Positions 5,549 through 60,690 of a DNA stretch of 61,713 nucleotides are shown here, in pieces. Source of the stretch: Candidatus Micrarchaeota archaeon (GTDB lineage: Archaea; Micrarchaeota; Micrarchaeia; Burarchaeales; JBFMAP01). The stretch spans positions 1 to 61,713 of the forward strand of contig CAZWEI010000002.1 of NCBI GenBank assembly GCA_964632135.1, given 5' to 3'. The stretch's first letter is position 1, and each line of letters begins with the position of its first letter. Made by a program: the position numbers and the translations under genes. Under the pieces are notes generated by a model that was given only the letters and a program-made list of their open reading frames with translations, was not told the origin of the DNA and did no database searches.

Positions 5549-5599
5549 GATTTGCGCATGCGCGCAAATGGTCCATTTTTCGCGGAGGCGAAAAATTGG
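5549..5599. repeat. Double-hairpin palindromic element, copy a
   Basis: gATTTGCGC-atg-cGCGCAAATGG t CCATTTTTCGC-ggag-GCGAAAAATTGG. Same architecture as the copies at 5800, 22692, 40140, 50996 and 51444. Confidence 0.75.
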
Positions 5600-5625
5600 A
5601 AGGAAAACGACGCGGATTTTATTTG

Positions 5626-5862
5626 ATGGTGTTCGGCGTGCTCCTCGTTATTTTCGGCTTGAGGATGTACATGGACCCGCGCATTTTTGTCATTCTTCTC
5701 GGCGTGGTGTTTTATCTGATTGGTGTAGATAACTACCTTCTAGCGAATTTCAAGGAAAGCATAATTGAAGAGGTCAGGGGCGAGCTCGGGAAGAAAAAGG
5801 CGCAATTTTTGCTACGCAAAAATGCGCATTTGCGCGGAGCGCAAATTGCGCGCGAAAGATAG
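5626..5862 (+). CDS. Small two-TM membrane protein, with its C-terminal tail encoded by a palindromic element
   Basis: ORF 5596..5862. The TTG at 5596 lies inside repeat copy a, so ATG 5626 (MVFGVLLVIFGL) is preferred. There are two hydrophobic spans. The last ~19 aa (AQFLLRKNAHLRGAQIARER) are read from repeat copy b. Confidence 0.4.
   Translation: MVFGVLLVIFGLRMYMDPRIFVILLGVVFYLIGVDNYLLANFKESIIEEVRGELGKKKAQFLLRKNAHLRGAQIARER
5800..5854. repeat. Double-hairpin palindromic element, copy b
   Basis: GCGCAATTTTTGC-tac-GCAAAAATGCGC followed by ATTTGCGC-gga-GCGCAAAT. The 39-nt stretch 5815-5853 matches 22762-22800 apart from 2 compensatory differences. Confidence 0.8.
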
Positions 5863-7995: not shown

Positions 7996-8016
7996 AATGT
8001 TAATATACCTGTGCGC

Positions 8017-8049
8017 GCATAACAATTAATCTTATTCTGGAGTGGTTTT
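8017..8049 (+). promoter_or_regulatory. Shared promoter/5'UTR module (GCATAA..TAaTCTTATTCT.GaGtGG)
   Basis: gcataacaattaatcttattctggagtggtttt directly precedes GTG 8050. Related modules precede six other genes. Confidence 0.45.
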
Positions 8050-9219
8050 GTGTCCGAGGAGAGGGATGTTGAGTATCTCATAGGGCTCGTGAGAAGCAGG
8101 GATAAGTGGAAACAGTTGGACGCCATTGTTGGAGCCGAGGAACTAAACAAGAGGTACGGGCGAGGCGCAATGAGCGTGGTTGGCGAGGCGATTGCAAATT
8201 ATGCAGGCGGGGAAGTTTTGAAAAACGCGATGTACGCGGGCATTGAAATCGGGGGCTCGGAAGCTGCCGAGATATTTGCGAGCTTACTACGGAACCCGGA
8301 CATAAACGTCGCGATGGTTGGCGAGATGGGCCTTATGGGGCTTGCGGCAAAGGCTGCGGAGCAGGGCGATCTCGAAACGATGAAGACGATTTTGACTGTG
8401 ATTGGCAGGACATTTTTCGATGAAAGGCGGAAGGACATGCTCGCAATTTATAATTCTTTTGAGATTGGTGGGGTCCTTGAGGAGTTAAAAACGAAGCCGA
8501 GCAGCGAAAAGACAATGGAGGCGGTTTCTGAGTTCGTTCGGAAGGTTAAGGAAAAACTAGCTGGCGGGAACGAGAAGGAGCACCTCAAGGAGATAGGAGA
8601 AGCCAAAAACGTTGATGATTTGATCGAAGTGGTCCTCATAATCTTGAAAAAGCCTGCTGGCGCGAGCGTTTTGGACGCGATCGTCGAGGCGGTTGCTGAA
8701 AAGGCCGACGGGAAGACAAAGGAAATTTTTGAAAAAATGAGTACGGAGCAAGACCCTCGGGTTGCAGCAATGGCTTGCCTGTGCCTTGCTGGAATCGCCG
8801 CACGAGACGGGAGCGGTCTGTTTGTGGACAAATATTTGAAAGCCGCTGGAGAGAAGATGAAGAACTTGAACGATGAGTTCGGCAGCGTAAAGGAGATGGG
8901 CGAAAGGATTCTGTTCAGATATTTGCTGAATTGCGGTGAAGAGGATTTAACGGCCGTAAAGGACAAGGAAACTGCTAAAACGTTTGTGAGTGTGTTCAAC
9001 GTTTTGGGGATGGCGAACCCGAGGAGTGGCGGAAGCAGTAAGGATAAAGAACGCTATTCGGAGCTGAAGAGAATCGCCGATGATTTGAGATTTGCAGTAT
9101 TGGGCGGGGCGAGCGCCGGCGAGATAGTCGAAAAAATAGAGAAGTTTGTAAAGGCACGCGGGCTACGAGAAGAAAAGAAGGGCAGTTCGCGGGCTGGACT
9201 TATGAAAGGGGCGGGCTGA
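8050..9219 (+). CDS. HEAT/ARM-like helical repeat protein (hypothetical)
   Basis: 389-aa ORF with a GTG start after GGAGTGGTTTT. It contains alpha-helical repeats. The C-terminal half (DPRVAAMACLCLAGIAARDG...ILFRYLL...SKDKERYSELKRIADDLRFAVLGG) is paralogous to the gene at 11697..12401. Confidence 0.65.
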   Translation: MSEERDVEYLIGLVRSRDKWKQLDAIVGAEELNKRYGRGAMSVVGEAIANYAGGEVLKNAMYAGIEIGGSEAAEIFASLLRNPDINVAMVGEMGLMGLAAKAAEQGDLETMKTILTVIGRTFFDERRKDMLAIYNSFEIGGVLEELKTKPSSEKTMEAVSEFVRKVKEKLAGGNEKEHLKEIGEAKNVDDLIEVVLIILKKPAGASVLDAIVEAVAEKADGKTKEIFEKMSTEQDPRVAAMACLCLAGIAARDGSGLFVDKYLKAAGEKMKNLNDEFGSVKEMGERILFRYLLNCGEEDLTAVKDKETAKTFVSVFNVLGMANPRSGGSSKDKERYSELKRIADDLRFAVLGGASAGEIVEKIEKFVKARGLREEKKGSSRAGLMKGAG

Positions 9220-11696: not shown

Positions 11697-12401
11697 CTAA
11701 TGAGGTTGAAAGTTTTTTTTCTTCTCTAGTTTGTTTTGTCCTAGCGCTTTTTTGACTGTGTCTCTTAGGTCTGCTTTGCCGTGTAATACGAGCTTCAAAT
11801 CTTCTGCAGCCGCTTGTAGTTTGTTATACCGTTCCTTGTCTTTCTCGCTCGCTTTTTCTGGAAGCCCCATTTTACTTAATTTTTCAACTTTTTCTAAAAA
11901 TTTATTGACATCTGACGCGTATATGGGAAAAAGGGTATCATTCATTTCTTTTAGGATGCCGTATGCCACCGTCAACTCATACCTAAATTGAATTTTATCA
12001 CGCTCTTCGTTTATGCGCTTTTCTGCGTCCCCTATGTTTTTTATTTTTTCCTCAGCAATTTCCAAATACTCGCGCATTAAGCTATTGTTGCCTTCTCGTG
12101 CACTTAATCCTGCGAGACCAAAGAATGCCATTGCAGCAATCTTTGGATTTTCGTGCTCCCTTGCCCTGAGGAATATGCCCGCTGCTTCTTCGTGGTCTAG
12201 CTGGTCAATCGCCTTTACAGCCATATCCAAAATATTGCCGTCGGCGGGATTTCTTAAAACAAGGTCTAGAATTGAAATTGCGGTTTGCGGGTCTGATGCA
12301 GCGCGTTTCACCGCGTCCTGAACTGCTATACTTTGAGCTTCTGGAACTGGGCTCCCGGCGCGTAAGATGAGTATACTTTTTTCCATATCGACTTTTGACA
12401 C
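11697..12401 (-). CDS. HEAT/ARM-like helical protein, paralog of 8050..9219
   Basis: ORF 11697..12410. Start moved to the second GTG (12401) by analogy with GGTGGTTTTGTG at 8050. It shares NPKIAAMAFFGLAGLSAREG, IQFRYEL and EKDKERYNKLQAAAEDLKLVLHG with the other paralog. Confidence 0.6.
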   Translation of the reverse strand: MSKVDMEKSILILRAGSPVPEAQSIAVQDAVKRAASDPQTAISILDLVLRNPADGNILDMAVKAIDQLDHEEAAGIFLRAREHENPKIAAMAFFGLAGLSAREGNNSLMREYLEIAEEKIKNIGDAEKRINEERDKIQFRYELTVAYGILKEMNDTLFPIYASDVNKFLEKVEKLSKMGLPEKASEKDKERYNKLQAAAEDLKLVLHGKADLRDTVKKALGQNKLEKKKNFQPH

Positions 12402-12436
12402 AAAAACCACCTTGTAGAATAAGTAATAGTTTATGC
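12402..12436 (-). promoter_or_regulatory. Shared promoter/5'UTR module
   Basis: The minus strand reads gcataaactattacttattctacaaggtggttttt, followed by the GTG. Confidence 0.45.
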
Positions 12437-12465
12437 ATGAACGGATTTATATTACTTGCGCGCGA

Positions 12466-14727
12466 CTAAACCGAGCGCAACTCTGCTTCGACGAAGTCCT
12501 TGAATTTTTGCATCCAAATTGGCTCCACGTCTTTGTAATCGATCGAGCCGTTCTCCTGCTCCTTTTCAGCGAGGAGGAGGTTCGCCTCCGAGTTGCATTT
12601 GAGCACGAAATCTATTTCCGTGAGTTGCGGCGCGTTGAGCGCGTTCGAAGCCTTCGCTATGTCCGAGTAAATCTTGCCCTTGAAAAATGCCTGGAGTATG
12701 TTTTGAAGCGGGGTGAGGCCTGCCTCCTCGCTGCGGCGCTGGAGGACCGGGGGTATGTAGTTCACGTTCAGGTTTTCCTCGAGACTCGCGATGCTCGTGT
12801 TGCTCAGCGACCACGCGGACGCCTCGGGGTTCGCGATGAAGTTGCATTGAAGAGAGGAGGTTTCTGGCGAAGTGCCGCGCTTGTACGTGAAAAGTTCTAT
12901 GAACTGGCGGCGCTCTGCGTCGGTTTCGAGGAGTTGCGCGAGAACGCGGTGGACTGGTCCTCTTCGCTTGAATTTTATTTTTTTCAGGAATGAGAAGCGC
13001 TCTGTTGTGAAAAGCGAGGCAGCAGGAACGCCGAAAACAGTCTCGAGGCGGTCCTGAACGTCCTTTATGCTCTGGCCGTGGAGGTTGTAAAGACAGAAAA
13101 CGCCGGTTTGCGTGTTGAGCAGATTGATGAGCCCCTGTATCGCGAGGCGAGAGCGGAGCTCGTTCACGATGAGGCAGGAGTCGCCCATTCTCAGCGAGGC
13201 GTTCGCCATTGTGAGAAGAGACAGTTCTTTCGAGGATTCTGCTTCCTGATCAGAACTTTGAACGTGCATCGCGCCTATGTGGAACCCGCGCTTCCGGTAC
13301 GCGCGCACAGGAATCTCCTCTATGTCCTGAATCGGGAGTATGCGTTTCTTCGTGCCGATGGAGATTATTTTCGCTGCCGTAAACGCGGTTTTTCCAACTC
13401 CTTTCAAGCCGAGAACTGCTTCGGAGCAGCCGAGGCCGACCATCAAATCGTCGTAGCCAGCGTAGAACGGCGTGAGGCTGCAGAGCTGGATGTACTGTGG
13501 GTACGTGAATGGCGTTTCCTTGTTGACGCGGATTGCGAGTTGGAGTTCGCCGAAAGTCGCGGGCGGGCCCTGTATGTGGCAGCGCAGCCCGAGGCGGTTG
13601 AACATCGTGTCGAGAATCGGGTTCTTGAAATCGAACCTGCGCGATTCTTTCATCGTTGCCGCGATGTTGTGGACCGCGCGCTCCAGAAGTTCCTTGTTGT
13701 ATCTCCAGAGCGTGTGGCACAAACCGAACTTCGCGTGTTCGATGTAGATTGGCGAGTTCTCGCTGTCGAGATAGATGTCGGTTATGTTGTTCCTGTCGAG
13801 CGCCATGTTTTCAATCGGGCTTCCGAGACCGACGACCCAGTTCGCCGCCTCCCTGCCCATCGCCATCGCCTCCTGGAGGGAAAGCGGAACGCCCTGCGTG
13901 GCGGCCATGTCGATGAATTGCTGGCGGTACGCGCGCACCTTAGCATCATACGCAGCCGCGGGGTCTATAACCTCCTCGCGAGAGGACATCCCCACGTCTA
14001 TCGCCTGTTTGAGCATTTTCTGCAGTTGCGGTGAGAGGCTCTGGATGAGGCTGTTCTCGTGTGTGTAGAGGTTCGCCTCGGATTTTTCGAGCGAGTAGAG
14101 TTTTGCGGTTATTCCAAACCCCAAATCATAAACCGCGCCAGGCTCTGTCAATGGTTTTGCATCGGGCGGGAGTTCGAACATCAGCGAGTCGATGAACTGG
14201 AAACTCTTCAGCCCCGCAAGCGAGGCGAACGCCGCGCGCACGTCCTTGTATTTTGAAACGAGTTTGTAGAACTCCGTCGAGGAAATTTTTTCGGAGACGT
14301 TTGCGAGATATGTGGAGAATTTGTGATAGCCGTCCATGAAAATGCCTTTCGTCGGCTCTGGCTCGTGGTAGTCTTTTATCATCTGGAGCGTGAGGACTGG
14401 GCTCATGAAAAGCGCTTCGAACATTTTTTCCAGGAATTTCTTCCGTATGGGGTGGTAGTCGTCTTCCTTGCGGCCGTATGATGCTGGATCGGACATGACG
14501 CGCTCGACTTCGCGGATCAGGTTTGCGTATTCCATTATTACGCGCGTCTTTTCCTCGTTGAACTCGATTATTGTTTCCTCCTCGTATCGCATCGTCTTGA
14601 TGTCGACGTCGGTGAGCATGCTGAGGTCGTGGAGCTGGCTGTTAATGCATTTCGCGCTGAACATCTCGAAAGGGCAGGAGGCGCAGTCCATTACCGCGCG
14701 CGTCCCCTGTACCGAGAGCTTGCACAT
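12466..14727 (-). CDS. Type II/IV secretion (PilB/VirB11/ArlI-family) ATPase, long form
   Basis: 753-aa ORF with Walker A GLKGVGKT, the RMGDSCLIVNELRS (Asp/Walker B box region) and TGVFCLYNLHG (His box). It has a long N-terminal extension with a Cys cluster (CASCPFEMFSAKC). Confidence 0.85.
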   Translation of the reverse strand: MCKLSVQGTRAVMDCASCPFEMFSAKCINSQLHDLSMLTDVDIKTMRYEEETIIEFNEEKTRVIMEYANLIREVERVMSDPASYGRKEDDYHPIRKKFLEKMFEALFMSPVLTLQMIKDYHEPEPTKGIFMDGYHKFSTYLANVSEKISSTEFYKLVSKYKDVRAAFASLAGLKSFQFIDSLMFELPPDAKPLTEPGAVYDLGFGITAKLYSLEKSEANLYTHENSLIQSLSPQLQKMLKQAIDVGMSSREEVIDPAAAYDAKVRAYRQQFIDMAATQGVPLSLQEAMAMGREAANWVVGLGSPIENMALDRNNITDIYLDSENSPIYIEHAKFGLCHTLWRYNKELLERAVHNIAATMKESRRFDFKNPILDTMFNRLGLRCHIQGPPATFGELQLAIRVNKETPFTYPQYIQLCSLTPFYAGYDDLMVGLGCSEAVLGLKGVGKTAFTAAKIISIGTKKRILPIQDIEEIPVRAYRKRGFHIGAMHVQSSDQEAESSKELSLLTMANASLRMGDSCLIVNELRSRLAIQGLINLLNTQTGVFCLYNLHGQSIKDVQDRLETVFGVPAASLFTTERFSFLKKIKFKRRGPVHRVLAQLLETDAERRQFIELFTYKRGTSPETSSLQCNFIANPEASAWSLSNTSIASLEENLNVNYIPPVLQRRSEEAGLTPLQNILQAFFKGKIYSDIAKASNALNAPQLTEIDFVLKCNSEANLLLAEKEQENGSIDYKDVEPIWMQKFKDFVEAELRSV

Positions 14728-21450: not shown

Positions 21451-22824
21451 ATGACCCAGATGGAACTTGCAAAAAGAGGCGTCGCCACCCCCGAGGCCAA
21501 GGCGATAGCAAAAAAAGAAAAGATAAATTTAGACAAACTCGCGCGTTCCATCGCGCGTGGCCGAGCGGTCGTTCTTTCTAGTGGCGTTTTTGTTTGTGGC
21601 GTTGGCGAAAGACTTGCAACGAAGATTAACGCGAACATCGGCGCGTCCCCGGATTACGTCAACGTAAAGGAAGAAATTAAAAAATTAAAAACCGCGGTTG
21701 CCGCTGGCGCAGACACCGTGATGGACCTCAGCATCGCCGGCCCGCTCGACGACATTTTGTGCGCGGTGATAAAAAATGCAAAAATTCCTGTGGGAACTGT
21801 CCCCATCTACCGGGCGGCGCTCGCAGCCACGCAACGCGGTGGAAAAATTTATGATATGAGCGAGGACGAGATGCTCGCCGCGATACAAAAACACATCAAA
21901 CTCGGCACCTCGTTTCTCACGCTCCACGCGGCGATAACGCGGGATGGCATCCGCCTCGCGAGAAAAAGGGATTTGGGGATTGTAAGCAGGGGCGGGTGCT
22001 TTCTCGCGACTTGGATGCTCCACAACAAAAAGGAAAACCCGCTCTATAAAAATTTCGACTACATTCTCGAAACGGCGCACGAAAACGACGTGGTTATAAG
22101 CATAGGCGATGCGCTCAGGCCAGGCGCGCTCAGCGACGCGAACGACGCCGCTCAAATTCACGAATTAAAAATTCAGGGCGAGCTCGCGAGGCGCGCGCAC
22201 GCGGAAAACGTCTCCGTAATCTGCGAGGGCCCGGGCCACATGCCGCTTAGCACGATCGCGCAAAACGTCGCGCTCCAGAAGCGCATCTGCAGGGGCGCGC
22301 CCTATTACGTCCTCGGCCCTCTCGTCACCGACATCGCGGTCGGCTACGACCACATAAACGCCGCGATAGGCGGCGCGCTCGCTGCAGCGGCAGGCGCGGA
22401 TTTCCTGTGCGTGGTCACCCCGAGCGAGCACGTCGCGCTTCCAACCGAAAATGACGTGCGCGAGGGCGTGATCGCCGCGAAACTCGCCGCGCACGCAGCC
22501 GACATCGTGAAACTCAAACGCTCGAAAATTGATTTTGAGATGGGGAAGGCGCGCGCGCAACTCAACTGGGCGAAACAATTCTCGCTCGCGCTCGACCCAG
22601 TGCGTGCGCGCGAGTACAAAAAAAGACGAGGCACAAAGAGCCCCGCGTGCAGCATGTGCGGGGATTTCTGCGCCATCAAACTGATGAGGAACGCGCAATT
22701 TTTGCTTCCAATTTTTCGCTTCGCGAAAAATGGACATCTTCGCGCGACGCGCGAAGCTTGTCGCAAAAATGCGCATTTGCCCGGAGGGCAAATTGCGCGC
22801 CAAACGAAACAGCAATCTTTTTAA
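21451..22824 (+). CDS. thiC: Phosphomethylpyrimidine synthase ThiC, with a repeat-encoded C-terminal extension
   Basis: Typical ThiC blocks are present (DTVMDLS, IGTVPIY, GDALRPG, EGPGHMP, YVLGPLVTDIA.GYDHI, CSMCGDFCA). The last ~40 codons are read through palindromic element copy c. Confidence 0.9.
   Translation: MTQMELAKRGVATPEAKAIAKKEKINLDKLARSIARGRAVVLSSGVFVCGVGERLATKINANIGASPDYVNVKEEIKKLKTAVAAGADTVMDLSIAGPLDDILCAVIKNAKIPVGTVPIYRAALAATQRGGKIYDMSEDEMLAAIQKHIKLGTSFLTLHAAITRDGIRLARKRDLGIVSRGGCFLATWMLHNKKENPLYKNFDYILETAHENDVVISIGDALRPGALSDANDAAQIHELKIQGELARRAHAENVSVICEGPGHMPLSTIAQNVALQKRICRGAPYYVLGPLVTDIAVGYDHINAAIGGALAAAAGADFLCVVTPSEHVALPTENDVREGVIAAKLAAHAADIVKLKRSKIDFEMGKARAQLNWAKQFSLALDPVRAREYKKRRGTKSPACSMCGDFCAIKLMRNAQFLLPIFRFAKNGHLRATREACRKNAHLPGGQIARQTKQQSF
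22692..22800. repeat. Palindromic element, copy c (nested/composite, 109 nt)
   Basis: The outer arms GCGCAATTTTTGC ... GCAAAAATGCGC enclose two extra hairpins (CCAATTTTTCGC-ttc-GCGAAAAATGG and CTTCGCGC-gac-GCGCGAAG). These are followed by ATTTGCCC-gga-GGGCAAAT. Confidence 0.8.
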
Positions 22825-23159: not shown

Positions 23160-23191
23160 ACGAACATAAAAAGAGATATAAATTTGTTCGT

Positions 23192-23224
23192 GTAAAAAAG
23201 ATTACTTGTTCTAGAGGTGGTTTT
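23192..23224 (+). promoter_or_regulatory. Shared promoter/5'UTR module
   Basis: gtaaaaaagattacttgttctagaggtggtttt precedes GTG 23225. Confidence 0.4.
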
Positions 23225-23737
23225 GTGGTAAATGTAAACGTTTTGATAGTTATCGGGTCGGTCGATGTGCGCGAGGAGATTAAAAAAGCCGTATCGGACA
23301 CCGCCAAACACTCGTGGTTCGCACGTTTTAAATTTGAAATAATAGACGCCAAGTCCGGTTCCGACTGGTTTTCCGAACGCGACAAGACGCGCCCCAACAT
23401 CATAATCGCCGATCATGAAAATTACGCGCCATTACTAGGATATAGAAAAATGGCTTGCAAAGTAATCGAAGAAAAGCCACACGTGGTTATTTTTGATTTT
23501 GACCACGTGCCCACAGGCGGCCTTGACATTTTAGATGAAATTAAACAACAATATACAAAAAATATAGAAACGCGGTTTAAACTGCAAAAAAAAGAAGAAA
23601 AACTAGCCGAACCTAGTGGGCCGGGTGACGGGATACTTTCAAAGAGGCCGCACCATCTAACGTTCCCCAATACGCTTGCCGAATTTAAAGGGAGAACGAA
23701 GCCGCTCTTTAAGCAACGACCGGTTCAAATAATTTAG
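23225..23737 (+). CDS. Receiver-like protein
   Basis: This is the 3' part of ORF 22730..23737. GTG 23225 sits 5 nt after GAGGTGG. VNVLIVIGSVDVREEIKK...NIIIADHENY...VVIFDFDH has the beta-alpha periodicity of a receiver fold. Confidence 0.5.
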   Translation: MVNVNVLIVIGSVDVREEIKKAVSDTAKHSWFARFKFEIIDAKSGSDWFSERDKTRPNIIIADHENYAPLLGYRKMACKVIEEKPHVVIFDFDHVPTGGLDILDEIKQQYTKNIETRFKLQKKEEKLAEPSGPGDGILSKRPHHLTFPNTLAEFKGRTKPLFKQRPVQII

Positions 23738-25512: not shown

Positions 25513-26676
25513 ATGGGAGTTCAGTTGGAGTACATACCCGAGGAAAAAAAGGTCATAGTTTCACAACCAGAGTCAGTAAGTTCTCTGGAGAAGGGCTGCT
25601 ACGGCACGATGCATAAGGGCGTGATAACTCTTTTTCCAGAGGAAGCCCTTTACTTGATAGACATACGAAACGGCAGATGCTACGACACGCACGGGAACGA
25701 ACTGAAATTCAACGACCTCGCTGAAAAATTTCCCATTCCAAAACTTATGGCGCGCTATTTCACCTATAAAGATTGGCGCGACAGGGGGCTCGTTCTCAGG
25801 CCGATTTCAGAGGCAGAGGGAAAATACGGCAGAAGTCCGGCGAAAAAATATCCCTCGGGAAAATTCAACGCGCCCAGATACAGCATTCTCGGACTGTTCT
25901 TCCCAGAGGATTTGGTGACTGTCATTGATGACGACGTAGTGGGAAAAGAAATTTACGAGACCTATTGGCTTGGACAGTTCGGTAGTTACAAGGCAGAGCA
26001 GCGCGGGAGGCTCAGCAAGCTCGACGTGTATGAAACGCTTTTCATGATGAAGCACTGCGGGCTCGCGCTCAAGAATGCGAACGAGAGCGAGGTAATAAAG
26101 CTCGCGACAAAGCGCAGGCCGGATTTCAGGAGCATGTACAGCGTTTATGAAGATTGGAGGCTCCGCGGCTTCATTCTGAAAACCGGTTTCAAGTTCGGCA
26201 CCCACTTCCGCCTCTATTTCCCGAAGGCATCGCCGACGCGCGACGTCGATAAATGGATTCATTCAAAACACGTGATACACGTTTTCCCAAGGAGGAGCAA
26301 ACTCCTCATCTCCGAATGGGCGCGCGCAATCCGCGTAGCGCACAGCGTGAAGAAGACGTTCATACTCGCGATTCCGGGCACGACCAGCAAGAAGAAACCA
26401 GTAGAACTAGATTTTCTCCTCTACCACCGCAAGCCCGGGGGCATCGAAACCCCTAAAGAGGGAAAGCCGCGATTCCTGATGTTCTCGCTCAGCGAGGAGG
26501 AATACATCGGGGGCGCAGAACTCGCGGACGCGATAGAGGAGACGAAGAAAATTGGGCTCGAGTTGATGCTTGCGATCAGCGATAGGGAGACGAGCGTCAC
26601 ATACTACCGCGTGCGCAGGTTGGAACTCCCGGGAAGCAAGTACGAATATTACGAGATTGAGTGGGAGCAGCCATAG
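25513..26676 (+). CDS. endA: tRNA-splicing endonuclease, long single-chain multi-unit form
   Basis: ORF trimmed to ATG 25513 (387 aa). The catalytic unit is YEDWRLRGFILKTGFKFGTHFRLY...HSKHVIHVF...RVAHSVKKTFILA. It is preceded by a degenerate unit (YFTYKDWRDRGLVLRP) and followed by ~95 extra residues. Confidence 0.85.
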   Translation: MGVQLEYIPEEKKVIVSQPESVSSLEKGCYGTMHKGVITLFPEEALYLIDIRNGRCYDTHGNELKFNDLAEKFPIPKLMARYFTYKDWRDRGLVLRPISEAEGKYGRSPAKKYPSGKFNAPRYSILGLFFPEDLVTVIDDDVVGKEIYETYWLGQFGSYKAEQRGRLSKLDVYETLFMMKHCGLALKNANESEVIKLATKRRPDFRSMYSVYEDWRLRGFILKTGFKFGTHFRLYFPKASPTRDVDKWIHSKHVIHVFPRRSKLLISEWARAIRVAHSVKKTFILAIPGTTSKKKPVELDFLLYHRKPGGIETPKEGKPRFLMFSLSEEEYIGGAELADAIEETKKIGLELMLAISDRETSVTYYRVRRLELPGSKYEYYEIEWEQP

Positions 26677-26711
26677 CGCGCGGCGCGCGAAACGTATATA
26701 AACCAGAATAC

Positions 26712-26744
26712 GCATAACGTAATACTAATTCTAGAGGTGTTTCC
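26712..26744 (+). promoter_or_regulatory. Shared promoter/5'UTR module
   Basis: gcataacgtaatactaattctagaggtgtttcc precedes ATG 26745. Confidence 0.45.
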
Positions 26745-27797
26745 ATGGATAATGAAATGGACCAAATCCTTCTCGTGTCCCCAGACCAGCGCCGGTTCAA
26801 GCCACTTAACGAGGCACTGCAAACGGCGAAACACACCACCCCCGACATCGGCTATACGAACATACTCACGGCGACTTCTGCGTCTGCGGCGCTGGAACTA
26901 CTCAAAGACAACAAAGATATTGGCGTTGTCGTCGCAGCCGCCCTCACCGTTTCAGAGGCAGCATTCCTGTTTTCCAAAATCAAGGAGCAAAGTCCGCAGA
27001 CACAGATAATGATGGCGATTCCAGAATCAGGAGAAGACACAAAATCATTAGGGCCCTTCAGACCAGATTTTTTTAGCTATAAAGACCTTCACAAAGAGCC
27101 AGCGGCAGTTGTATACCGGATAGAAACCGCGCTTCTAATTGCAAACATAGGCGGAAAATCCAGCGTCCTGTTTATATTCGACCCATGCAGCGCGTTTGTT
27201 TTTTATACCCGGCATAGAGACGACAGCAGAACCCTATGCGAAAAGATAGGAATGAAACACGAGATTGACCCAATCCTAGACAACGTATCCCTACATGCTG
27301 CGGGAAGCACCCAAGACCGCCTTATATCAAGCGCCCAAGCCTGTAGCGACAAGTCCCTTCGCGCCGCTGTTGTTGACCTTTGGTCGCCTGACGATGTTTT
27401 TACTGTGGTTACCGCCATCCGCGACATTGACCCAAGGCTTCCAATAGCCGTGGTATTCCCTGAAAACCCAGACAAATCCGTGAAGGAGGGGTTTTCAATA
27501 CTAAAGGAATATGCCGCGCAATACGGTCTAACTATCGTTCGTAACGGCGACCACCTGTTTGCGAATCTTAACGACTTTTTAAATGGACGACCGGTGAAAG
27601 AAGATGCAGAAACTACTACACCAAATAAACTTAAAACTGACACTGAGGACGTGTTGTCAATACCTCTCCATTTAGCCCAGAAGAAAAAGCTAAACCCCAA
27701 CGACTTCCAAAAAGAAATCGCCAACAGAAAACCCGTGTACCTACTACTACGAGACCTTATCCCCGAAAAATTACGCAACAGAGTGTGGAAAACCTAG
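26745..27797 (+). CDS. Protein with two tandem receiver-like domains
   Basis: 350 aa. Domain 1 is QILLVSPDQ...GVVVAAALTVSEA (no Asp). Domain 2 is SVLFIFDP...AAVVDLWSPDD...IAVVFPEN. Confidence 0.55.
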   Translation: MDNEMDQILLVSPDQRRFKPLNEALQTAKHTTPDIGYTNILTATSASAALELLKDNKDIGVVVAAALTVSEAAFLFSKIKEQSPQTQIMMAIPESGEDTKSLGPFRPDFFSYKDLHKEPAAVVYRIETALLIANIGGKSSVLFIFDPCSAFVFYTRHRDDSRTLCEKIGMKHEIDPILDNVSLHAAGSTQDRLISSAQACSDKSLRAAVVDLWSPDDVFTVVTAIRDIDPRLPIAVVFPENPDKSVKEGFSILKEYAAQYGLTIVRNGDHLFANLNDFLNGRPVKEDAETTTPNKLKTDTEDVLSIPLHLAQKKKLNPNDFQKEIANRKPVYLLLRDLIPEKLRNRVWKT

Positions 27798-27821
27798 CAC
27801 CTCGCGGCGGCAAGTGATTTT

Positions 27822-28382
27822 ATGAGCGGTAAAATACTCGTGGTTGGCGGAGAAGGAAGCGAAATCCGCCCTGCTGTTGCTGAGCAGTTGCGAAAGAACG
27901 GACATGGCGTGCACGAGGCAATGTCGGCAGGCGACGGGTTCAATATATTTTTTATTGAAATGAACAACAAAGAACCGTTTAGCCTAGTAATAATATCAAA
28001 TCTAGATTTCTGGAACCTAGCTTTCGAAATCGTGAAAGCACGCAAAGTACCGAACGTCAAAATACTGGCGATAACCGAGCGCGGGATAATAAACGGCGAA
28101 CTGGAGCGTAAATTGGAATCCTACGCAAGGAAGAACGGCGTAACCGCATTTTTTCCAAAAATCAATTTATACAAGGATGGAAAATTAGAAGCGGTTGTAA
28201 CCAATTTGTTGAACAACCAACACACACAGAAAAAAAAGAAAAAGAACAAAAGAGGATATGTGTTACCTCTTTCTTCCGCTCCACCTCTATCAGACACGAT
28301 GTCACCTCGAGGATATTGGGCGCGGTATGAACTTCCTAAATGCTTATACCACAACAAACCGCAAACGCGCTTGCCCGCCTAA
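27822..28382 (+). CDS. Pseudo-receiver protein (GG-type)
   Basis: KILVVGGEGSE replaces the acidic pocket and LVIISNLDF replaces the phospho-acceptor. ILAITERG (Thr) and FFPKINL (Lys) are retained. Confidence 0.55.
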   Translation: MSGKILVVGGEGSEIRPAVAEQLRKNGHGVHEAMSAGDGFNIFFIEMNNKEPFSLVIISNLDFWNLAFEIVKARKVPNVKILAITERGIINGELERKLESYARKNGVTAFFPKINLYKDGKLEAVVTNLLNNQHTQKKKKKNKRGYVLPLSSAPPLSDTMSPRGYWARYELPKCLYHNKPQTRLPA

Positions 28383-28504
28383 ATAAACTTTAGAAGCGCC
28401 GCAACCGACTCAACAACCATTTTCGGCTCTTCCTTTCCGCGCGCCTTTTCCGCGTCTTCTTTTTTCGTTACTCCTGTGAGAACGAGGACGCCGCGTGTGC
28501 GGAA
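28379..28504 (-). pseudogene. Relic 3' fragment of a HAD-IIA phosphatase gene (duplicate of the 3' end of 29168..29998)
   Basis: The minus-strand translation FRTRGVLVLTGVTKKEDAEKARGKEEPKMVVESVAALLKFI* aligns with FGALSVLVLTGVAKKEDVKKLRGKEKPKLVVDSVASLLKLV of the intact gene. DNA identity is ~75% by eye. There is no start codon and no N-terminal part. Confidence 0.7.
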
Positions 28505-28523
28505 TTAATATAAGCCCGCGTAT

Positions 28524-28556
28524 GCATAATATTCTACTTATTCTAGGGTGTGATTT
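28524..28556 (+). promoter_or_regulatory. Shared promoter/5'UTR module
   Basis: gcataatattctacttattctagggtgtgattt precedes ATG 28557. Confidence 0.45.
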
Positions 28557-29171
28557 ATGGATTTAGAGAAGCGCCAGAAATATAGCGTGCTTGTTTTTGG
28601 CGGGTCAAACGAAGACCAGGACTATCTAGTAAAACCAATACGAGACGCAATAGAGAAAATGGGCGGGTCGATACTGAAATTAAGCATCCCCAGCGTGCCT
28701 CACTTCTGTGAAGCACTCTTTCACGTTAACGATACAAAAGACGAAGGGAACCTTATTCTCGCTATCGCGATTATGCCGCGGGAAGCCACCAAACTCTCTT
28801 CCGCGATGGAATATCTTCTCGCGATTTTAAATTCAGACCCAACTCTTCCTATGTTGATGTTGAGTTATGAGGGTAGTATGCACCGGGCGGGCTTAGATAC
28901 ATTGGAGAGAATTGGCGTCAAATTTCTTGATAGAACGTCTATATCTTCAGGATCCGGAAGAGTCAAGATTAAAGAAGCAATTGAAGAATTATTGACCAAG
29001 GCGCCAGAAACACGAACTCGCGCGTCTGGACTCGACACCGACGAATCTCTACCCGGGCATTCTTTTTGGCACCCTGGGCAAAAGTTCTCCATGTTTCTTC
29101 CTTTCTCCGTTGAACGCGCAATGCAACGCGCGCAACGCAACAAACGCGGCAACCCCCTGTGGCGCGTCTAG
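28557..29171 (+). CDS. Pseudo-receiver protein (GG-type)
   Basis: SVLVFGGSNEDQD, LILAIAIMPRE (no Asp) and LMLSYEG. Its architecture parallels 27822..28382. Confidence 0.5.
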   Translation: MDLEKRQKYSVLVFGGSNEDQDYLVKPIRDAIEKMGGSILKLSIPSVPHFCEALFHVNDTKDEGNLILAIAIMPREATKLSSAMEYLLAILNSDPTLPMLMLSYEGSMHRAGLDTLERIGVKFLDRTSISSGSGRVKIKEAIEELLTKAPETRTRASGLDTDESLPGHSFWHPGQKFSMFLPFSVERAMQRAQRNKRGNPLWRV

Positions 29172-29998
29172 CAACGTCGAATGGCCGTGCCGTCAACAAG
29201 TTTCAACAGAGAAGCGACAGAATCCACAACCAACTTCGGCTTCTCCTTCCCGCGCAGTTTTTTCACGTCTTCCTTTTTCGCGACTCCCGTGAGCACGAGA
29301 ACGCTGAGCGCGCCGAATTTGTTCGCGGCAACGATGTCGCTTTCTGCTCTATCACCAACGCAAACAATCTCCTTTGGTTTCACGCGTGCCTCCCTTGCAA
29401 TCCTCTCTAGCAAAAACGTGTTCGGCTTTCCGATAACTATTTCAGGCGATTTCTTCGCGCAGGCTTTCAGCGCGCCCACCATCGCGCCCGCGCCGGGGTA
29501 GAACCCCTCCTCGAGAGGAATGGTCGCGTCCTCATTCGTTGCGATGAAGCGCGCGCCGTTCTGGAGCGCGGCCAGCGCGATGCGCAACTTCTCGTAATCG
29601 AACTCGCGGTCAAGGCCGACGACGACAAAATCAACGCGCTCGCCCTCCCTGCCGCCCATAATCTCAAACCCCGCCATCCCCAACTCGTTCTTCAGCCCTT
29701 CCTCCCCAATAATGAACACCCGCCCCTTCCCGTACCGCTCCTTCAAATAAACCGCCGCGCCGTACGCCGACGTAAATACCTCTTCTGCGCGCGCCTCAAT
29801 CCCGAGAGAGTTGAGTTTTTCCGCGTATTGCTGGCGCGTGCGCGTGGCGTTGTTCGTGAGGAAGTAGACTTTCTTGTTTTTAGCGCGGAGGATGCGTACG
29901 AGTTCGCCGGTGCCCGGAATTGTGCGCGAGCCGACGTACAGCACGCCATCAAGGTCGAAAACGAAAACCCTGTATTTTGAGAGTGCGCGCGCTTTCAT
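29168..29998 (-). CDS. HAD-superfamily subfamily IIA phosphatase (NagD-like)
   Basis: ORF trimmed to ATG 29998. It has motif I FVFDLDGVLY, motif II FLTNN, and motif III/IV KP...VGDRAESDI. Confidence 0.85.
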   Translation of the reverse strand: MKARALSKYRVFVFDLDGVLYVGSRTIPGTGELVRILRAKNKKVYFLTNNATRTRQQYAEKLNSLGIEARAEEVFTSAYGAAVYLKERYGKGRVFIIGEEGLKNELGMAGFEIMGGREGERVDFVVVGLDREFDYEKLRIALAALQNGARFIATNEDATIPLEEGFYPGAGAMVGALKACAKKSPEIVIGKPNTFLLERIAREARVKPKEIVCVGDRAESDIVAANKFGALSVLVLTGVAKKEDVKKLRGKEKPKLVVDSVASLLKLVDGTAIRRC

Positions 29999-32743: not shown

Positions 32744-33142
32744 TCAGAGGAGCCGCTTCTCGCCCTCAATTTCCTTTATTTTCGTTATGTCCTGCGAGAC
32801 CTCGAGGCAGCCCAAATATTCCCCTTTTTCGTCCCTGACCGCGAAATACCTGATGTAAATCTTCCTTCCCTTATTGTCTATCCAGAATTCCGCGGCGTCC
32901 CTCTTGTTGCTTTTGAACTCGCCTAAAATCTGCTCAACTTTCGCAAGGCTTTTTGGGGGATGGCAGTTCTGCACCTTCCTTCCGATGACCGCGGCAGGCC
33001 GTGGGAATATCTCCCTCTTCTCGCCTTTGTTGAAATAGGCGACAGTGTTGCTCGCGTCAATGAAACTTATCTCCACCGGAAGAGTATCGAGTAACGGACC
33101 TAAAACGCCCTTTCCAATCCCGCCAGGCATCCGGATCACCAT
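32744..33142 (-). CDS. Stand-alone PAS domain protein (DUF438-associated type)
   Basis: LDTLPVEISFIDASNTVAYFNKGEKREIFPR..AVIGRKVQNCHPPKS...ILGEFKSNKRD..EFWI. The CHPPKS block is characteristic of this PAS subfamily. Confidence 0.7.
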   Translation of the reverse strand: MVIRMPGGIGKGVLGPLLDTLPVEISFIDASNTVAYFNKGEKREIFPRPAAVIGRKVQNCHPPKSLAKVEQILGEFKSNKRDAAEFWIDNKGRKIYIRYFAVRDEKGEYLGCLEVSQDITKIKEIEGEKRLL

Positions 33143-33632: not shown

Positions 33633-34253
33633 TTATTCAGAAAAGTAGCTTGGCGAATGCGCGCGCGGCGTGTTGTCGTACTGGTGCCGAGGAGGGAAAT
33701 CATCAAAACCAAATGCGTTTTTCGGTGGCTTCCAGCGACCATAAATCTCATTCAAATCGCGCGAGCCTCCTCCCCCAACCTCCGCGCTTTTAGGCACAAC
33801 GCTGTTGAGAATTTTTACGGCACCCGGTTTCTTTTCACAAATACCTTTGTTGTAGATAAACGTGATATTGGTTGGCGTCGATCCGTCTTTGTTTTTAAAT
33901 GCTTTTTTATCTGCGTCATTCTCTACCAACACAAATATAGGGAGACCTCGCCCCTCTTTATATTTGAGTGCTTTACGAACAAAATTCGCGGGGTAGCCCA
34001 TCACATTAGCCGAAACAATCATAAGATTAATCGCTCCCAGCTCGGTCGATGTCAATCCAAAACCAAACGGCATATCTTCCATGCAACTTCTTACAAAGTA
34101 GGGTTCCAGTTTTCTACCCGTCAATTTCTTAATTTTTCTATATGTTCCTTTGCTACATACGAAAAAAGTTTTGATAGTACCGTCCACAACACCACCCCCA
34201 AGAACAAGTAATATCTTTTGCAGGTGCAAATTTATATTCGTTGCGCGTTTCAA
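33633..34253 (-). CDS. Pseudo-receiver protein (GG-type)
   Basis: KILLVLGGGVVDG, NLMIVSANVMGY (Ser in place of Asp), IFVLVEND and FIYNKG. The stretch looks AT-rich by eye. The start is TTG. Confidence 0.5.
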   Translation of the reverse strand: MKRATNINLHLQKILLVLGGGVVDGTIKTFFVCSKGTYRKIKKLTGRKLEPYFVRSCMEDMPFGFGLTSTELGAINLMIVSANVMGYPANFVRKALKYKEGRGLPIFVLVENDADKKAFKNKDGSTPTNITFIYNKGICEKKPGAVKILNSVVPKSAEVGGGGSRDLNEIYGRWKPPKNAFGFDDFPPRHQYDNTPRAHSPSYFSE

Positions 34254-35602: not shown

Positions 35603-36316
35603 ATGGATACAAGCGGAATAACGAACGCAGTTTATTCGCTCAGCTTTATATTTCTACTCATAGACATCCCGTTCCTTAAAAAGAAAACCAGCGAAAGCGA
35701 GGGCGGAGGGGCGGCAGGCGCGCGCGCAGGGGAAAAGGAGATGCCGGAGCCGTGCGCCGACCACGAGCTCAGCATCGCCGTGTACAAAAAAATACTCGCG
35801 AGGTACCACGAGCAGATTGAGAAGAACGAGTACAAGACCATCTCCGAACTGCGCGCGCTCGTGAATCCGAACAACCCAGCAATTCAGAAAATAAGCGCGG
35901 AAATACGGGAGGAATTTCATCCATACATTTACGATAATAATTTTCTCGAGGCGGCGGGAAAGGCTTACGACTTCATAAAAAACGACATCAAAAACGTAGA
36001 GCTCCCGATTGATTTCTGGCTCGCGCCGGAGGAAATTCTCGAACTGCGCGCCGCCGATGAGACGGACAAGGCGATATTCCTGTGCTCGCTGCTCGTCGCG
36101 CTCGACAATGCGGATGCGCGCGTGGTGGTGGAAACGAACGGCGAGCGCCACGTGTTCGCGATATTCGAATTCAAGGAGGGGTTCTATCTGATGGACCCCG
36201 TTCATGACGTGCGGCTCGAGGGCGCGAAGGAGGAGGTCCTGAAAACATATTTCGCAGACCGGGCTGGCAACCGCCTCGTGTACGAGTTCAACGACCGCGT
36301 TTACGAGGAAAAGTGA
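35603..36316 (+). CDS. Transglutaminase-like (Cys-His-Asp) protein
   Basis: This is the 3' part of ORF 35132..36316 from ATG 35603. DKAIFLCSLLVAL...RHVFAIFEF..GFYLMDPVHD gives the Cys, His and Asp in the expected order. Confidence 0.55.
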   Translation: MDTSGITNAVYSLSFIFLLIDIPFLKKKTSESEGGGAAGARAGEKEMPEPCADHELSIAVYKKILARYHEQIEKNEYKTISELRALVNPNNPAIQKISAEIREEFHPYIYDNNFLEAAGKAYDFIKNDIKNVELPIDFWLAPEEILELRAADETDKAIFLCSLLVALDNADARVVVETNGERHVFAIFEFKEGFYLMDPVHDVRLEGAKEEVLKTYFADRAGNRLVYEFNDRVYEEK

Positions 36317-36396
36317 GGGGCGGGCGGGGATAAGCGTTTTAAATCTCATCTACCAATATACTACGCTCCATAGCGGCTACAAGAATGTGATTGAAT

Positions 36397-47121: not shown

Positions 47122-47883
47122 TTATCCCTCGTAGACCTGCTCGCTCGGATAGACGACTATGCCGTTCGGCCTGAACCGCATCGGGCATATCTTCTGCTCG
47201 AACGCGGTCCCGCGCAACTTTATCACCTCAAGCGCGCGTATCCTAGAGTTTCCTTTCCTTATGTTGTACAAATAAACCAGCCCATCCACAAGCGCCTCTA
47301 TCCCGAATCTGGTTCTGAGGCTGTCAGGCGTGCTTATCTCCGGCGCGCTCTCGGAAAGCAGAAGAGTCGTGCAGCTCCATTTCCTCAGTTTGCTTATTAT
47401 CCGCAGCAGCTCCTGCCGCCTCCTTCTCTCGGTGTCATAAAGAAGCGCGAGCGAGGTCATCGAATCCACGACCATTCGCTTCACCCCTTTTTCCTCCATC
47501 TCGTCGCGGATGAATGCCTCCTCGGTCGTGAACCTCTCGACCTCCTGCGGGGGGTATTCGAGAAACATCAGCTTTCCGTCCTTCTCAAGCGTTTTCAAAT
47601 CCCATCCGTATCCTTTCATGTACTCAAAAACCGCGTCCTTCTGCTCCTCGAAAGTCACGTAAAGGCCAGGCTCGTCGTACTGGCTCGCGCCCATATACAA
47701 AAACTGCAATCCGAACGTGGTCTTCCCGCAGCCGGAATCGCCAGTGACGGTGATTATGCTGCCCTTCCTGAACCCGCCCTGCACCAGCCCGTCCAGGCCG
47801 GATATTCCGGTCTTTATCCTGGTTGCGATATCAACGGGCGCGTCGGACCTTTCAATCATACTATCGATTTTTTGTGCGACCAT
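47122..47883 (-). CDS. Single-domain KaiC/RecA-superfamily ATPase
   Basis: ATG 47883. GISGLDGLVQGGFRKGSIITVTGDSGCGKTTFGLQFLY contains the Walker A motif, and VVDSMTSL is the Walker B. Confidence 0.85.
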   Translation of the reverse strand: MVAQKIDSMIERSDAPVDIATRIKTGISGLDGLVQGGFRKGSIITVTGDSGCGKTTFGLQFLYMGASQYDEPGLYVTFEEQKDAVFEYMKGYGWDLKTLEKDGKLMFLEYPPQEVERFTTEEAFIRDEMEEKGVKRMVVDSMTSLALLYDTERRRRQELLRIISKLRKWSCTTLLLSESAPEISTPDSLRTRFGIEALVDGLVYLYNIRKGNSRIRALEVIKLRGTAFEQKICPMRFRPNGIVVYPSEQVYEG

Positions 47884-47927
47884 TTCAACTCCCGACAACA
47901 ATTAAACGCGCGCGCATATAAACGTTA

Positions 47928-52026: not shown

Positions 52027-52610
52027 TTATTTTTTCTGCGCAATTTTTTCTTCATCGTTTTGGATTATACTCCTAAACATGTCTCCAAACTTTTCCTCAA
52101 CTGTCGTTTTGAACTTCACGTTCAACCCAACATCGAAAACTACCGAGTTTGGGATTAGTTCTCTCTTCTCGCCCTCTGTAAAGGCAGGACAATTTTTAAC
52201 ACGTTCCAGGTCTGCCACTAATGGATGTATTATAACCTCTGGGTGTGCTTTTCGAATCTCTTTTATCAACTCGCCCGCTTCAGGATCCTTTGGCCCGATG
52301 TAAGTGAATAGGATGGCCGGCCCCCCCCTTCCTCCAGAAAATTGCGCGCTTGGCTAAGGGACGGTCTCCAGTTGATATCAAGGCGCCCGTCGCTTATCGT
52401 TTTACGTATTGCTCTAAGGACGTCTATATTTGGGTGAACTATTATAACCCTAGTTCTTTCGCCACCACCGACAAGTTTCTTAACTGGGGTTTCTTCTTTT
52501 GCACGATGCCGTATAGACGAGGGCAATGGCTCATCCAAAGAAGAGCCAAAACCCGAATTTATCGTATGAATTACGGAGCGGTTTACCCCGCGTTTGTAGA
52601 GACCTTCCAT
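52027..52610 (-). pseudogene. Receiver-like gene split by a frameshift at a C8/G8 homopolymer
   Basis: ORFs 52266..52610 and 52027..52269 are adjacent in different frames. Reading through the G8 run (plus strand C8 at 52321-52328) with one extra G joins them: ..NFLEEGGGPAILFTYIGPKDPEAGELIKEIRKAHPEVIIHPLV.., a continuous receiver-like beta-alpha pattern. Confidence 0.55.
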
Positions 52611-52632: not shown

Positions 52633-53679
52633 TTAAATAACTAATGTCGTCGTCTCGACTCGCGCGCCGTTATAATCAACTTCCGCCACAAACGCCCCGA
52701 ATCCTTCTTTTTTCAGCTCGCGCACAACCTCGCCAACCTTCCACGCGTCGACAATCGCAATGACCGCCCCCCCTTCCCCGCCGGCACCCGATAATTTCGA
52801 GCCATACGCACCATTTTTCAAACAAACTTTTCTCGCCTTCTCGATTCCCCTGCTGCTCATTCCCGCGCGCGCCAGCATCTCGTGGTTCTCGTTCAGCAGT
52901 CCCCCCAGCGCGCGTGCATCACCCCCAGCGCGCAGCTCGCTCGCAACCCGCCCAAACAATTTCTCGTACGCGCGCGTTATTCGCTTTCTTTCCGTTTTTC
53001 CAATCTCCTCTGGTTTGCCCCTCGCGCCACAAATCCGCGCGAACTTTTTCACCATCGCGCTCGTCGCGCTCTTTCTTCCACCAAAACAAGTATCAACGAC
53101 AACCACGCGCGCATTCCTCGGGAATGCGACTCGCGCATCCTTGAATTCAAACGAAACCTTTCTTTGGTTGAATTTTTTCCTGAAGAATTGGAACCCGCCC
53201 CTTATCACGGCGCGCGCGTCTATCCCGCTCGGAATCCCGCCGTGCATTATCCTCTCGGACGCCTGAACCGCCTCAAAAATCTCATCAAAGCTCGGCTGCT
53301 TCCTTCCAAAATACGAATAAAGCGCGAGCGCGAGCGCGGCGCCGAGCGATGCGGAATTTCCCATTCCCTTGGGCGCGTTCGAAAGAGCAAGATTCGCGCG
53401 CAAACCAGCGCGCGGTCTGAATTTGTTTTTCCTCAATATATGCAGAAACAACTCCCCGAAACCGCGCAGAACTTTCGCGCCAGAAAACTTTCCATCCGCG
53501 TTCATCATCGCGCAGCCGATTTTGCTTCTCATCTCCAGGCGCGGTTCTCCAGTAGTTTCTATTAGTTCCGCGCGGCTCCTGAGCGCCGTTGCGAACGCTA
53601 CTGCGCGCGCGCCGTAAACCACGTAATGCTCCCCGCAGAGTATCAGTTTCGTGGGCGCGGACGCGGCACTTTTTTTCAT
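52633..53679 (-). CDS. mvk: Mevalonate kinase
   Basis: ATG 53679. KLILCGEHYVVYG, PKGMGNSASLGAALALAL (GHMP motif II) and KLSGAGGEGGAVIA (motif III). Confidence 0.9.
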   Translation of the reverse strand: MKKSAASAPTKLILCGEHYVVYGARAVAFATALRSRAELIETTGEPRLEMRSKIGCAMMNADGKFSGAKVLRGFGELFLHILRKNKFRPRAGLRANLALSNAPKGMGNSASLGAALALALYSYFGRKQPSFDEIFEAVQASERIMHGGIPSGIDARAVIRGGFQFFRKKFNQRKVSFEFKDARVAFPRNARVVVVDTCFGGRKSATSAMVKKFARICGARGKPEEIGKTERKRITRAYEKLFGRVASELRAGGDARALGGLLNENHEMLARAGMSSRGIEKARKVCLKNGAYGSKLSGAGGEGGAVIAIVDAWKVGEVVRELKKEGFGAFVAEVDYNGARVETTTLVI

Positions 53680-53737
53680 ATACGGCAGATATCGCGCGCA
53701 ACCTTTTAAAGCCCTGCGCCGATAGTTAATCGATGTC

Positions 53738-56818: not shown

Positions 56819-56819
56819 C

Positions 56820-57221: not shown

Positions 57222-57225
57222 TTTT

Positions 57226-59196: not shown

Positions 59197-59216
59197 ACCT
59201 ATATATATTTGCTCCG

Positions 59217-59257
59217 GCATATAGTAATACTCGTTCTGGAAGACCGTTGGTGACTCC
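59217..59257 (+). promoter_or_regulatory. Shared promoter/5'UTR module (variant)
   Basis: gcatatagtaatactcgttctggaagaccgttggtgactcc precedes ATG 59258. Confidence 0.35.
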
Positions 59258-59989: not shown

Positions 59990-60017
59990 GATTTTGGAGG
60001 TGGAACAGGTGGAACTA

Positions 60018-60686: not shown

Positions 60687-60690
60687 GATT

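Follow-up and report, generated by a model that had tools for sequence, protein, structure and literature searches.

Analysis of the complete 61.7-kb contig of a Micrarchaeota (DPANN) archaeon, referred to here as the window, revealed both a canonical receiver protein and a set of degenerate receiver-like proteins. One of eight candidate open reading frames (ORFs), A, encodes the canonical stand-alone receiver. Four others, B, C, the two-domain D and E, may encode hyper-divergent, strain-variable, stand-alone pseudo-receivers, with F, G and H as possible further members, a reading in which our confidence is evenly balanced. Judged from their sequences, B, C, D and E are most likely extremely diverged receiver (REC) domains that lack part or all of the phosphorylation pocket. 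D/E/F and G are accessory genes in low-GC insertions, which are small, have precise boundaries, lie between core genes and are each headed by a common promoter/leader module of ~65 nt. Comparison with a sister strain also directly showed that one slot is polymorphic, with a canonical receiver in one strain and, in the other, a pseudo-receiver below the limit of detection. All eight ORFs listed in the first-pass annotation of this DNA, which had described them as an expanded receiver-like family, were present, although the start of G had most likely been mis-set and H proved to be split by a frameshift. The eight are listed here, orphan ORFs being termed ORFans and GC content at third codon positions GC3.

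A, 344-880, plus strand: canonical stand-alone CheY-like receiver with a ~50-aa basic/aromatic C-terminal tail.
B, 885-1415, plus strand: degenerate receiver-like protein in which Ala occupies the Asp site; it retains Thr98 and Lys116 and has a tail conserved in orthologues.
C, 23225-23737, plus strand: weak receiver-like ORFan with an Asp ending β3 (IIIAD) and no DD, T or K; GC3 0.46.
D, 26745-27797, plus strand: two receiver-like domains followed by a helical, basic C-terminal region.
E, 27822-28382, plus strand: receiver-like ORFan with GG in place of DD and with Thr (AITE) and Lys (FFPK) kept.
F, 28557-29171, plus strand: ORFan with an α/β pattern and a GG loop past β1.
G, 33633-34187, minus strand: ORFan without detectable receiver signal, with a revised start at GTG 34187 (33633-34253 as first read).
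H, 52027-52610, minus strand: single ORF with an α/β pattern, broken by a frameshift in the G8 run at 52321-52328.

ORF A matched the Pfam family Response_reg with an E value of 4.1e-17, and its NCBIfam matches were response regulators as well. Its active site is complete (IDDD, D56, T84 and K108), and A is the sole candidate with the full quintet, in agreement with the first-pass annotation, which had assigned the full DD, D, T and K set to this ORF only. The nearest relatives of A are 34-43% identical, and the two that were looked up (P0007 and P0008) are CheY-like genes in bacterial-type kinase/NtrC/MCP neighborhoods, that is, those of two-component or chemotaxis systems.

In the sister strain (L081, JBFMAP010000138.1), 81% nucleotide identity starts at the A/B boundary, just upstream of the start of B, and the slot of A is occupied by A' (L081:80-562), a 160-aa protein that is colinear with A and shares 28% protein identity with it (E 3e-4). 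The active site of A' has SK for DD and a deletion of the phospho-acceptor loop, with loss of the Asp; the Lys is kept. A' showed no Pfam match, and none to Response_reg even at E ≤ 1-10, which indicates that receivers can drop below Pfam detection in this lineage; by profile-profile comparison (hhalign), A' reached 64% against the receiver profile described below. The polymorphism at the A slot supports the occurrence of such divergence, or of paralogue replacement, in this lineage. C-terminal tails of 40-70 aa, rich in Gly, Pro, basic and aromatic residues, were seen in A, B, C, E, F, G and A', and close to the C-terminus A, A' and G have a [FLP]PR[H]Q-like motif in common.

Tests at the level of the group gave the degenerate candidates a receiver signal. 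The seven candidate domains, with A left out, were aligned with MAFFT (A2) and compared by hhalign with a receiver profile built from A and six database receivers (A4). A2 matched A4 at 86.3% (E 4.8e-6), with 94 columns in register from β1 to the Lys loop, whereas 11 control family alignments, the Rossmannoid HAD hydrolase among them, reached at most 1.1%. The match was 82.9% when A was removed from the receiver profile, and 75-93% when any single member was dropped from A2. Searches of 8,112 six-frame ORFs placed A first in five of six runs with leave-one-out family hidden Markov models (HMMs), and a receiver HMM ranked D 4th, B 8th, E 9th, C 17th and F 112th, with G and H nowhere in the ranking. 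None of 300 composition-matched shuffles reached the scores of B, C, E or either domain of D (D1 and D2), and the real score was reached by 8 shuffles for F, 31 for H and 168 for G. Searched against the PDB, the family profile gave five weak matches, four of which were receiver domains; the top match was a designed P-loop ATPase. The receiver-like identity proposed in the first-pass annotation was thus supported for the group profile but could not be demonstrated for F, G and H.

Examination of the individual members revealed different degrees of degeneration. In D, the receiver HMM (E 0.008) aligned both domains in register. D1 (~aa 1-115) has Ala in place of the Asp and, by alignment, keeps none of the five active-site residues; D2 (~aa 136-282) keeps the Asp, in VVDLWSPD, as its only active-site residue. 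By hhalign, D1 matched the receiver profile at 58%, D2 at 12% and the whole of D at 22%. An AlphaFold2 (AF2) model of D from the single sequence showed a β-α x5 order of secondary structure for D1, and the best single-domain Foldseek matches of this model were CheY and Spo0F (TM 0.55-0.66 normalized by target, E ≥ 1e-3). E starts 24 nt past D, with which it is probably co-transcribed, and its Asp sits three residues past the canonical site. E matched the receiver profile at 39-58%, and at 58% (E 1e-4) the alignment covered 95 columns from β1 to the Lys.

B was the candidate with orthologues, which were 60% identical in a sister metagenome-assembled genome (MAG) and 83% identical in an ENA contig, and no relatives of B were found in JGI metagenomes. 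A profile of these orthologues matched the receiver profile at 46% (E 2e-4), in register from α2 to β5. The ratio of nonsynonymous to synonymous substitutions (dN/dS) of B, 0.39 compared to 0.04-0.17 for core genes, indicates that B is under purifying selection. C alone reached 5%. On this evidence we assign D1 and E to the receivers with moderate confidence, and B, D2 and C with weak confidence; taken one by one the members argue weakly for receivers, and collectively they argue fairly well. Retention of the Thr and Lys positions, which the first-pass annotation had attributed to the degenerate members, was borne out by alignment for B and E but not for the others, and the Gly-rich loops that it described were confirmed at the start of E (KILVVGGEGSE) and F (VLVFGGSNED) but not for G, as discussed below.

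The genomic setting of these genes was resolved by comparison with the closest relative found, L037 (JBFMAP010000014.1, assembly GCA_040755655.1). The tRNA-splicing endonuclease EndA (25513-26676) is 96% identical to that of L037 and 59-77% identical to those at ~160 Micrarchaeota MAG or metagenome loci; JGI metagenomes contained no strain nearer than L037. The flanks of D/E/F and of G have 83-88% nucleotide identity to L037. In L037 the EndA stop is followed directly by the stop of the HAD hydrolase gene, and L037 thus lacks the entire 2.5-kb D/E/F block (26677-29195); in place of G (33636-34249) it has 8 nt. The insertion carrying G runs exactly from the promoter module of G to the stop codon of the gene, and the start of the D/E block is within a few bases of the module of D. 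D, E and F are consecutive genes, as had been described, and lie on the plus strand in the same reading frame.

Between E and F lies one further feature, such that F is flanked by two copies of it.

HAD 3'-end duplicate, 28383-28505: degenerate, between E and F, equivalent to 29196-29318.

This duplicate of ~120 nt is ~78% identical to the HAD 3' end of L037. An assembly chimera is an unlikely source for it, given this ~78% identity and the lack of a blastn match between the two window copies. The final eight codons of the intact HAD gene are unlike those of the sister strain. Near the second insertion, a stand-alone PAS_10 gene (32744-33142, minus strand, E 4e-29) lies one conserved gene away from G; it is missing in L037, which has a short hairpin-like sequence there instead.

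Searches for homologues indicated a lineage specificity that is, if anything, stronger than the first-pass annotation had claimed, in that neither D nor F had a database homologue and D/E/F and G were absent at the syntenic loci of L037. With D as query, a word-indexed search across 5.8 billion clusters retrieved D itself and nothing else. Exhaustive HMMER searching of 1.84 billion representatives with F returned F and P0006, a 1,741-aa repeat protein whose score was the sum of 10 weak repeat matches and which we rejected as spurious. When A-H were compared by tblastn with 162 Micrarchaeota loci (1.9 Mb), only B matched (L081 and L082), and C-H had no match. We found no relatives of D or E in INPHARED phages, no relatives of D, E or F in IMG/VR, and nothing significant in PADLOC and PHROGs HMM scans of B-G. 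The possibility that the slot downstream of EndA is a common receiver-like site in other Micrarchaeota was rejected, as the weak matches there were isolated; one of these, at L006, may be a HAD gene.

The module upstream of the island genes consists of ATATAAA, 8 nt, TGCATAA, 4 nt, TTACTTNTTCTAGRGGTG, 5 nt and the start codon. At least five ORFans on the contig are preceded by this module (nhmmer E 7e-10 to 2e-15).

23169-23229, plus strand: module of C, ATATAAA ... TTACTTGTTCTAGAGGTGGTTTT-GTG; nhmmer E 7.7e-12.
26684-26749, plus strand: module of D, with TATA, the Shine-Dalgarno sequence TTCTAGAGGTG and ATG; nhmmer E 2.8e-14.
28497-28561, plus strand: module of F; nhmmer E 1.2e-13.
34183-34248, minus strand: module of G, with a blastn match to the upstream region of C; nhmmer E 2.2e-15.
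12401-12463, minus strand: module before the ORFan at 11697-12401; nhmmer E 7.4e-10.

Over 54 nt, the sequences upstream of C and G share 81% identity (blastn). Weaker copies precede 59258-59989 (at 59195-59240, plus strand) and 8050-9219 (at 8003-8051, plus strand), and no copy was present in the other Micrarchaeota loci (1.9 Mb). The module may serve as a regulon operator or promoter, or may form the 5' terminus of a gene cassette.

Several features indicated that the candidates are genes. The annotated frame was the best of six for all candidates in a codon-model test and they therefore look coding, and the TATA and Shine-Dalgarno sequences found upstream are in favor of real genes. The absolute codon-model scores of the other candidates were below those of A, B and core genes. 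The AT-rich setting that the first-pass annotation had noticed by eye was evident for C-H, with a GC3 of 0.44-0.51 compared to 0.62-0.76 for core genes, but not for A (0.56) and B (0.65).

The calls for F, G and H required correction or remained without receiver signal. F matched the receiver profile at 2-5% and the profile of B orthologues at 13% (E 2e-3, 30% identity over 123 columns). H, which becomes a single intact ORF when one G is added to the G8 run, matched the receiver profile at 1% at most. Its frameshift may reflect an assembly error, pseudogene status or phase variation, the location in a G8 homopolymer being the reason to consider the first and last of these. G matched at 0.2%. 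The first 22 codons of G as first read align to the promoter and leader of C, D and F (TATA ... TTACTTGTTCTTGGGGGTGGTGTT-GTG), the leader module spanning the codons read as "KILLVLGGGVVDG", and hence translation likely starts at GTG 34187. Judged from this alignment, the Gly-rich "ILLVLGGGVVDG" loop that had been assigned to G is most likely the untranslated leader between TATA and Shine-Dalgarno. F, G and H may belong to the receiver-like set; they share its islands, size and tail architecture, and F and G its promoter module.

Several results weigh against the receiver assignment. The receiver profile is small (seven sequences) and centered on A, and dropping F or G from A2 raised its match to receivers. 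F, G and H gave no demonstrable receiver signal by HMM rank, shuffles or hhalign. The members left out of the family profiles were recovered at ranks of 3 to 226 or not found. Only A matched in the Response_reg search that the first-pass annotation had proposed as a check: B-H had no Response_reg or NCBIfam receiver match, even at E ≤ 1-10, and the seven non-canonical members had no Pfam or NCBIfam match of any kind. None of the hhalign comparisons, of the group or of single members, exceeded 95%, the level usually accepted as proof. The family-profile hmmsearch of the PDB gave nothing significant, and single-sequence PDB searches with E and F gave no match. The AF2 models of D (predicted local distance difference test score, pLDDT, 47) and of E (made with a seven-sequence alignment; pLDDT 60) were of low confidence, and neither gave a Foldseek match at E ≤ 1e-3. 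The E model had irregular secondary structure and Foldseek matches to assorted α/β sandwiches, with designed P-loop folds and small GTPases among the top ones, such that Foldseek cannot separate a receiver from P-loop or other α/β sandwiches. Structure prediction, also proposed as a check and carried out for D and E, thus returned a receiver-like order for D1 but did not set E apart from other flavodoxin-like folds.

The candidates also lack cross-similarity, with no phmmer match at E ≤ 1 and single-sequence hhalign values of at most 12%. Contrary to the first-pass annotation, no significant match by BLAST or by either of these methods linked any of the seven non-canonical members, and the "family" is thus invisible at the pairwise level. 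The closest pair, B and F (28% identity over 106 aa), reached an E value of 6e-5 only in a nine-sequence database. Sequence similarity did not reveal a paralogous family, the upstream modules of C, D, F and G being the only clearly homologous parts of the set. Finally, the module also precedes 11697-12401, which appears all-α by eye and has no Pfam match, indicating that it marks accessory or co-regulated genes and not a protein family. The key assignment rests on ~85% profile-level evidence from one MAG contig.

These results raise the possibility that the candidates are unrelated orphan ORFs, either remnants of mobile elements or young genes, that share a generic β/α hydrophobic pattern and form no family, the group signal coming from D1, E and B. 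We consider this somewhat unlikely. The lack of pairwise similarity, the failure of F, G and H in all receiver tests, the poor recovery of members in leave-one-out searches, the module before an all-α-looking gene, the many other contig ORFans without a Pfam match and the equally good fit of the E model to P-loop designs, GTPases and receivers are all what it would predict. In contrast, it does not readily account for a group profile that is receiver-specific relative to the 11 control families and stable to removal of single members, for the placing of four candidates in the top 17 of 8,112 ORFs by the receiver HMM, or for A', a receiver below Pfam detection in this lineage. An origin from mobile elements in particular is disfavored by the lack of relatives in PHROGs, PADLOC, INPHARED and IMG/VR that would point to one.

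A second alternative, that the candidates are non-functional receiver duplicates decaying by neutral drift toward AT richness and disruption, appears improbable. The frameshift in H, the low GC3 and atypical codon-model scores, the loss of catalytic residues, the lack of conservation beyond this genome and the existence of a sister strain without these genes and without apparent consequence are consistent with decay. Yet ORFs of 170-350 codons are still open in DNA of 44-48% GC, the geometry of promoter, Shine-Dalgarno and start is kept in four copies (with C and G 81% identical upstream), and B has a conserved tail in addition to its signature of purifying selection. The H frameshift itself, in a G8 homopolymer, is possibly an assembly error or phase variation.

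A further proposal, which we regard as quite improbable, is that Micrarchaeota possess a single-gene cassette system in which each unit comprises the ~65-nt module and a hyper-variable small ORF, often of receiver fold, together forming a repertoire of phosphorylation-dead mimics. New units would arise by insertion or by duplication that takes along parts of the neighboring core genes, with swapping at fixed slots that lie between core genes, and strain-specific receiver mimics in an episymbiont might target signaling proteins of hosts or viruses.

Gly-rich β1-α1 loops are typical of nucleotide-binding Rossmannoid folds. It is very improbable that E and F, which have such a loop, belong to another Rossmannoid superfamily (SLOG/LOG-like, TIR-like or P-loop-like) and sense ligands, perhaps as part of a conflict or defense island. 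In favor of this reading, the genes lie in strain-variable islands, designed P-loop folds and small GTPases are among the top Foldseek matches for E, and a designed P-loop ATPase leads the PDB matches of the family profile. Against it, E aligns to receivers from β1 through the conserved Thr and Lys at 58%, no PADLOC match, second Gly motif or Walker motif was found, and F has no support for any assignment.

Comparison of our candidates with known systems revealed both similarities and differences. Atypical response regulators with pseudo-receiver (PsR) or aspartate-less receiver (ALR) domains have been described in detail (PMC12632262, PMC4395418). Like such domains, B-E and A' appear to have a receiver-like (βα)5 pattern, lack at least one of DD, D, T and K, and are presumed to be phosphorylation-independent; B, D1 and A' lack the Asp, and E lacks DD. 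Compared with the definition of PsRs (PMC12632262), B-E and A' show the loss of residues, and they are recognizable as receivers at the weak profile-profile level only. Unlike PsRs, which are recognized computationally as receivers, B-E and A' fall below Pfam and NCBIfam detection; unlike most characterized PsRs, which have output domains, the contig proteins are stand-alone with disordered tails; and whereas PsRs are conserved regulators, the contig set comprises strain-specific ORFans in low-GC insertions.

Among archaeal response regulators, ~40% are stand-alone RECs, most of which retain Asp, DD, T and K, phosphorylation being expected (PMC5847659). Archaeal stand-alone CheY-like RECs are single domains without an output domain, often in no conserved neighborhood, a description that A fits fully and the other candidates share in these respects; the full active site is found here only in A. 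The resemblance to SLOG/LOG, TIR and P-loop-like domains extends to the three-layer α/β sandwich pattern, the GG past β1 in E and F, and the variable islands; it does not extend to sequence or profile evidence or to defense HMM matches, and E keeps the receiver-type Thr and Lys. What appears new relative to known pseudo-receivers is divergence below HMM detection, the stand-alone-plus-tail build and strain-specific insertion with a common module, in a DPANN lineage with almost no reported two-component proteins. The one complete Micrarchaeota genome in the archaeal census had a single histidine kinase and a single response regulator (PMC5847659).

In keeping with the first-pass annotation, neither a kinase nor an output domain was detected on the contig; Pfam scans of 51 window ORFs (41 besides the candidates) gave no HisKA or HATPase_c match. 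If B, C, D and E are pseudo-receivers, they would be expressed as cytoplasmic proteins that are not switchable by Asp phosphorylation. They might serve as modules that bind independently of phosphorylation, by way of the receiver surface and the ~40-70-aa basic/aromatic C-terminal tails, evolve rapidly under relaxed or diversifying selection, and be gained and lost as single promoter-headed gene units. A signaling-scaffold function is one that we purely infer.

The remainder of the contig has a typical small archaeal gene set, with Pfam matches among the submitted ORFs to LysRS, ThiC, TYW1, RNase HII, a β-CASP nuclease and a mevalonate-pathway cluster; many of the submitted ORFs had no Pfam family. 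The archaeal mevalonate-type gene cluster (52633-58008) includes a UbiX-like flavoprotein, a UbiD-like decarboxylase, aconitase X and a protein of the amino-acid-kinase family, together with a putative mevalonate kinase recognized by eye. A KaiC-like ATPase is encoded at 47122-47901. Two large ORFs, 2408-4888 (plus strand, 826 aa) and 12466-14727 (minus strand, 753 aa), had no Pfam match, and the product of the latter had one relative, 53% identical, among the fetched loci. ORF 35654-36349 (minus strand) had a dN/dS of 2.1 relative to L037 at very low dS, and may be a wrong ORF or frame or a fast-evolving gene.

Three adjacent low-GC (0.41-0.48) ORFans of 230-249 aa at 59258-61440 (plus strand) are apparently α-helical and seem paralogous by eye, with the common motif N[LM]A..L[FYW][LT]D[SD][LI][SA]; 59258-59989, the only ORF of this trio that was scanned, had no significant PADLOC or PHROGs match. 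GC-rich palindromic repeats (GCGCAATTTTTGC / GCAAAAATGCGC ... GCAAATTGCGCGC) occur at 5551-5607, 5815-5857 and 22700-22804; the 5.5-5.9 kb region has them in common with the ThiC 3' region. Throughout the contig, GCGCGC motifs are frequent upstream of TATA boxes.

Should the receiver assignment fail, the candidates would be ordinary MAG ORFans. Should it be true, receivers would be able to diverge below the reach of standard HMMs and yet stay expressed genes, and two-component censuses of DPANN archaea, which report almost none, would undercount receiver-fold proteins. The canonical and degenerate forms that two strains carry at one locus would be useful for addressing a phosphorylation-free role of pseudo-receivers. 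In addition, the precisely bounded, promoter-headed, strain-specific insertions would hint at how accessory genes turn over in tiny symbiont genomes.

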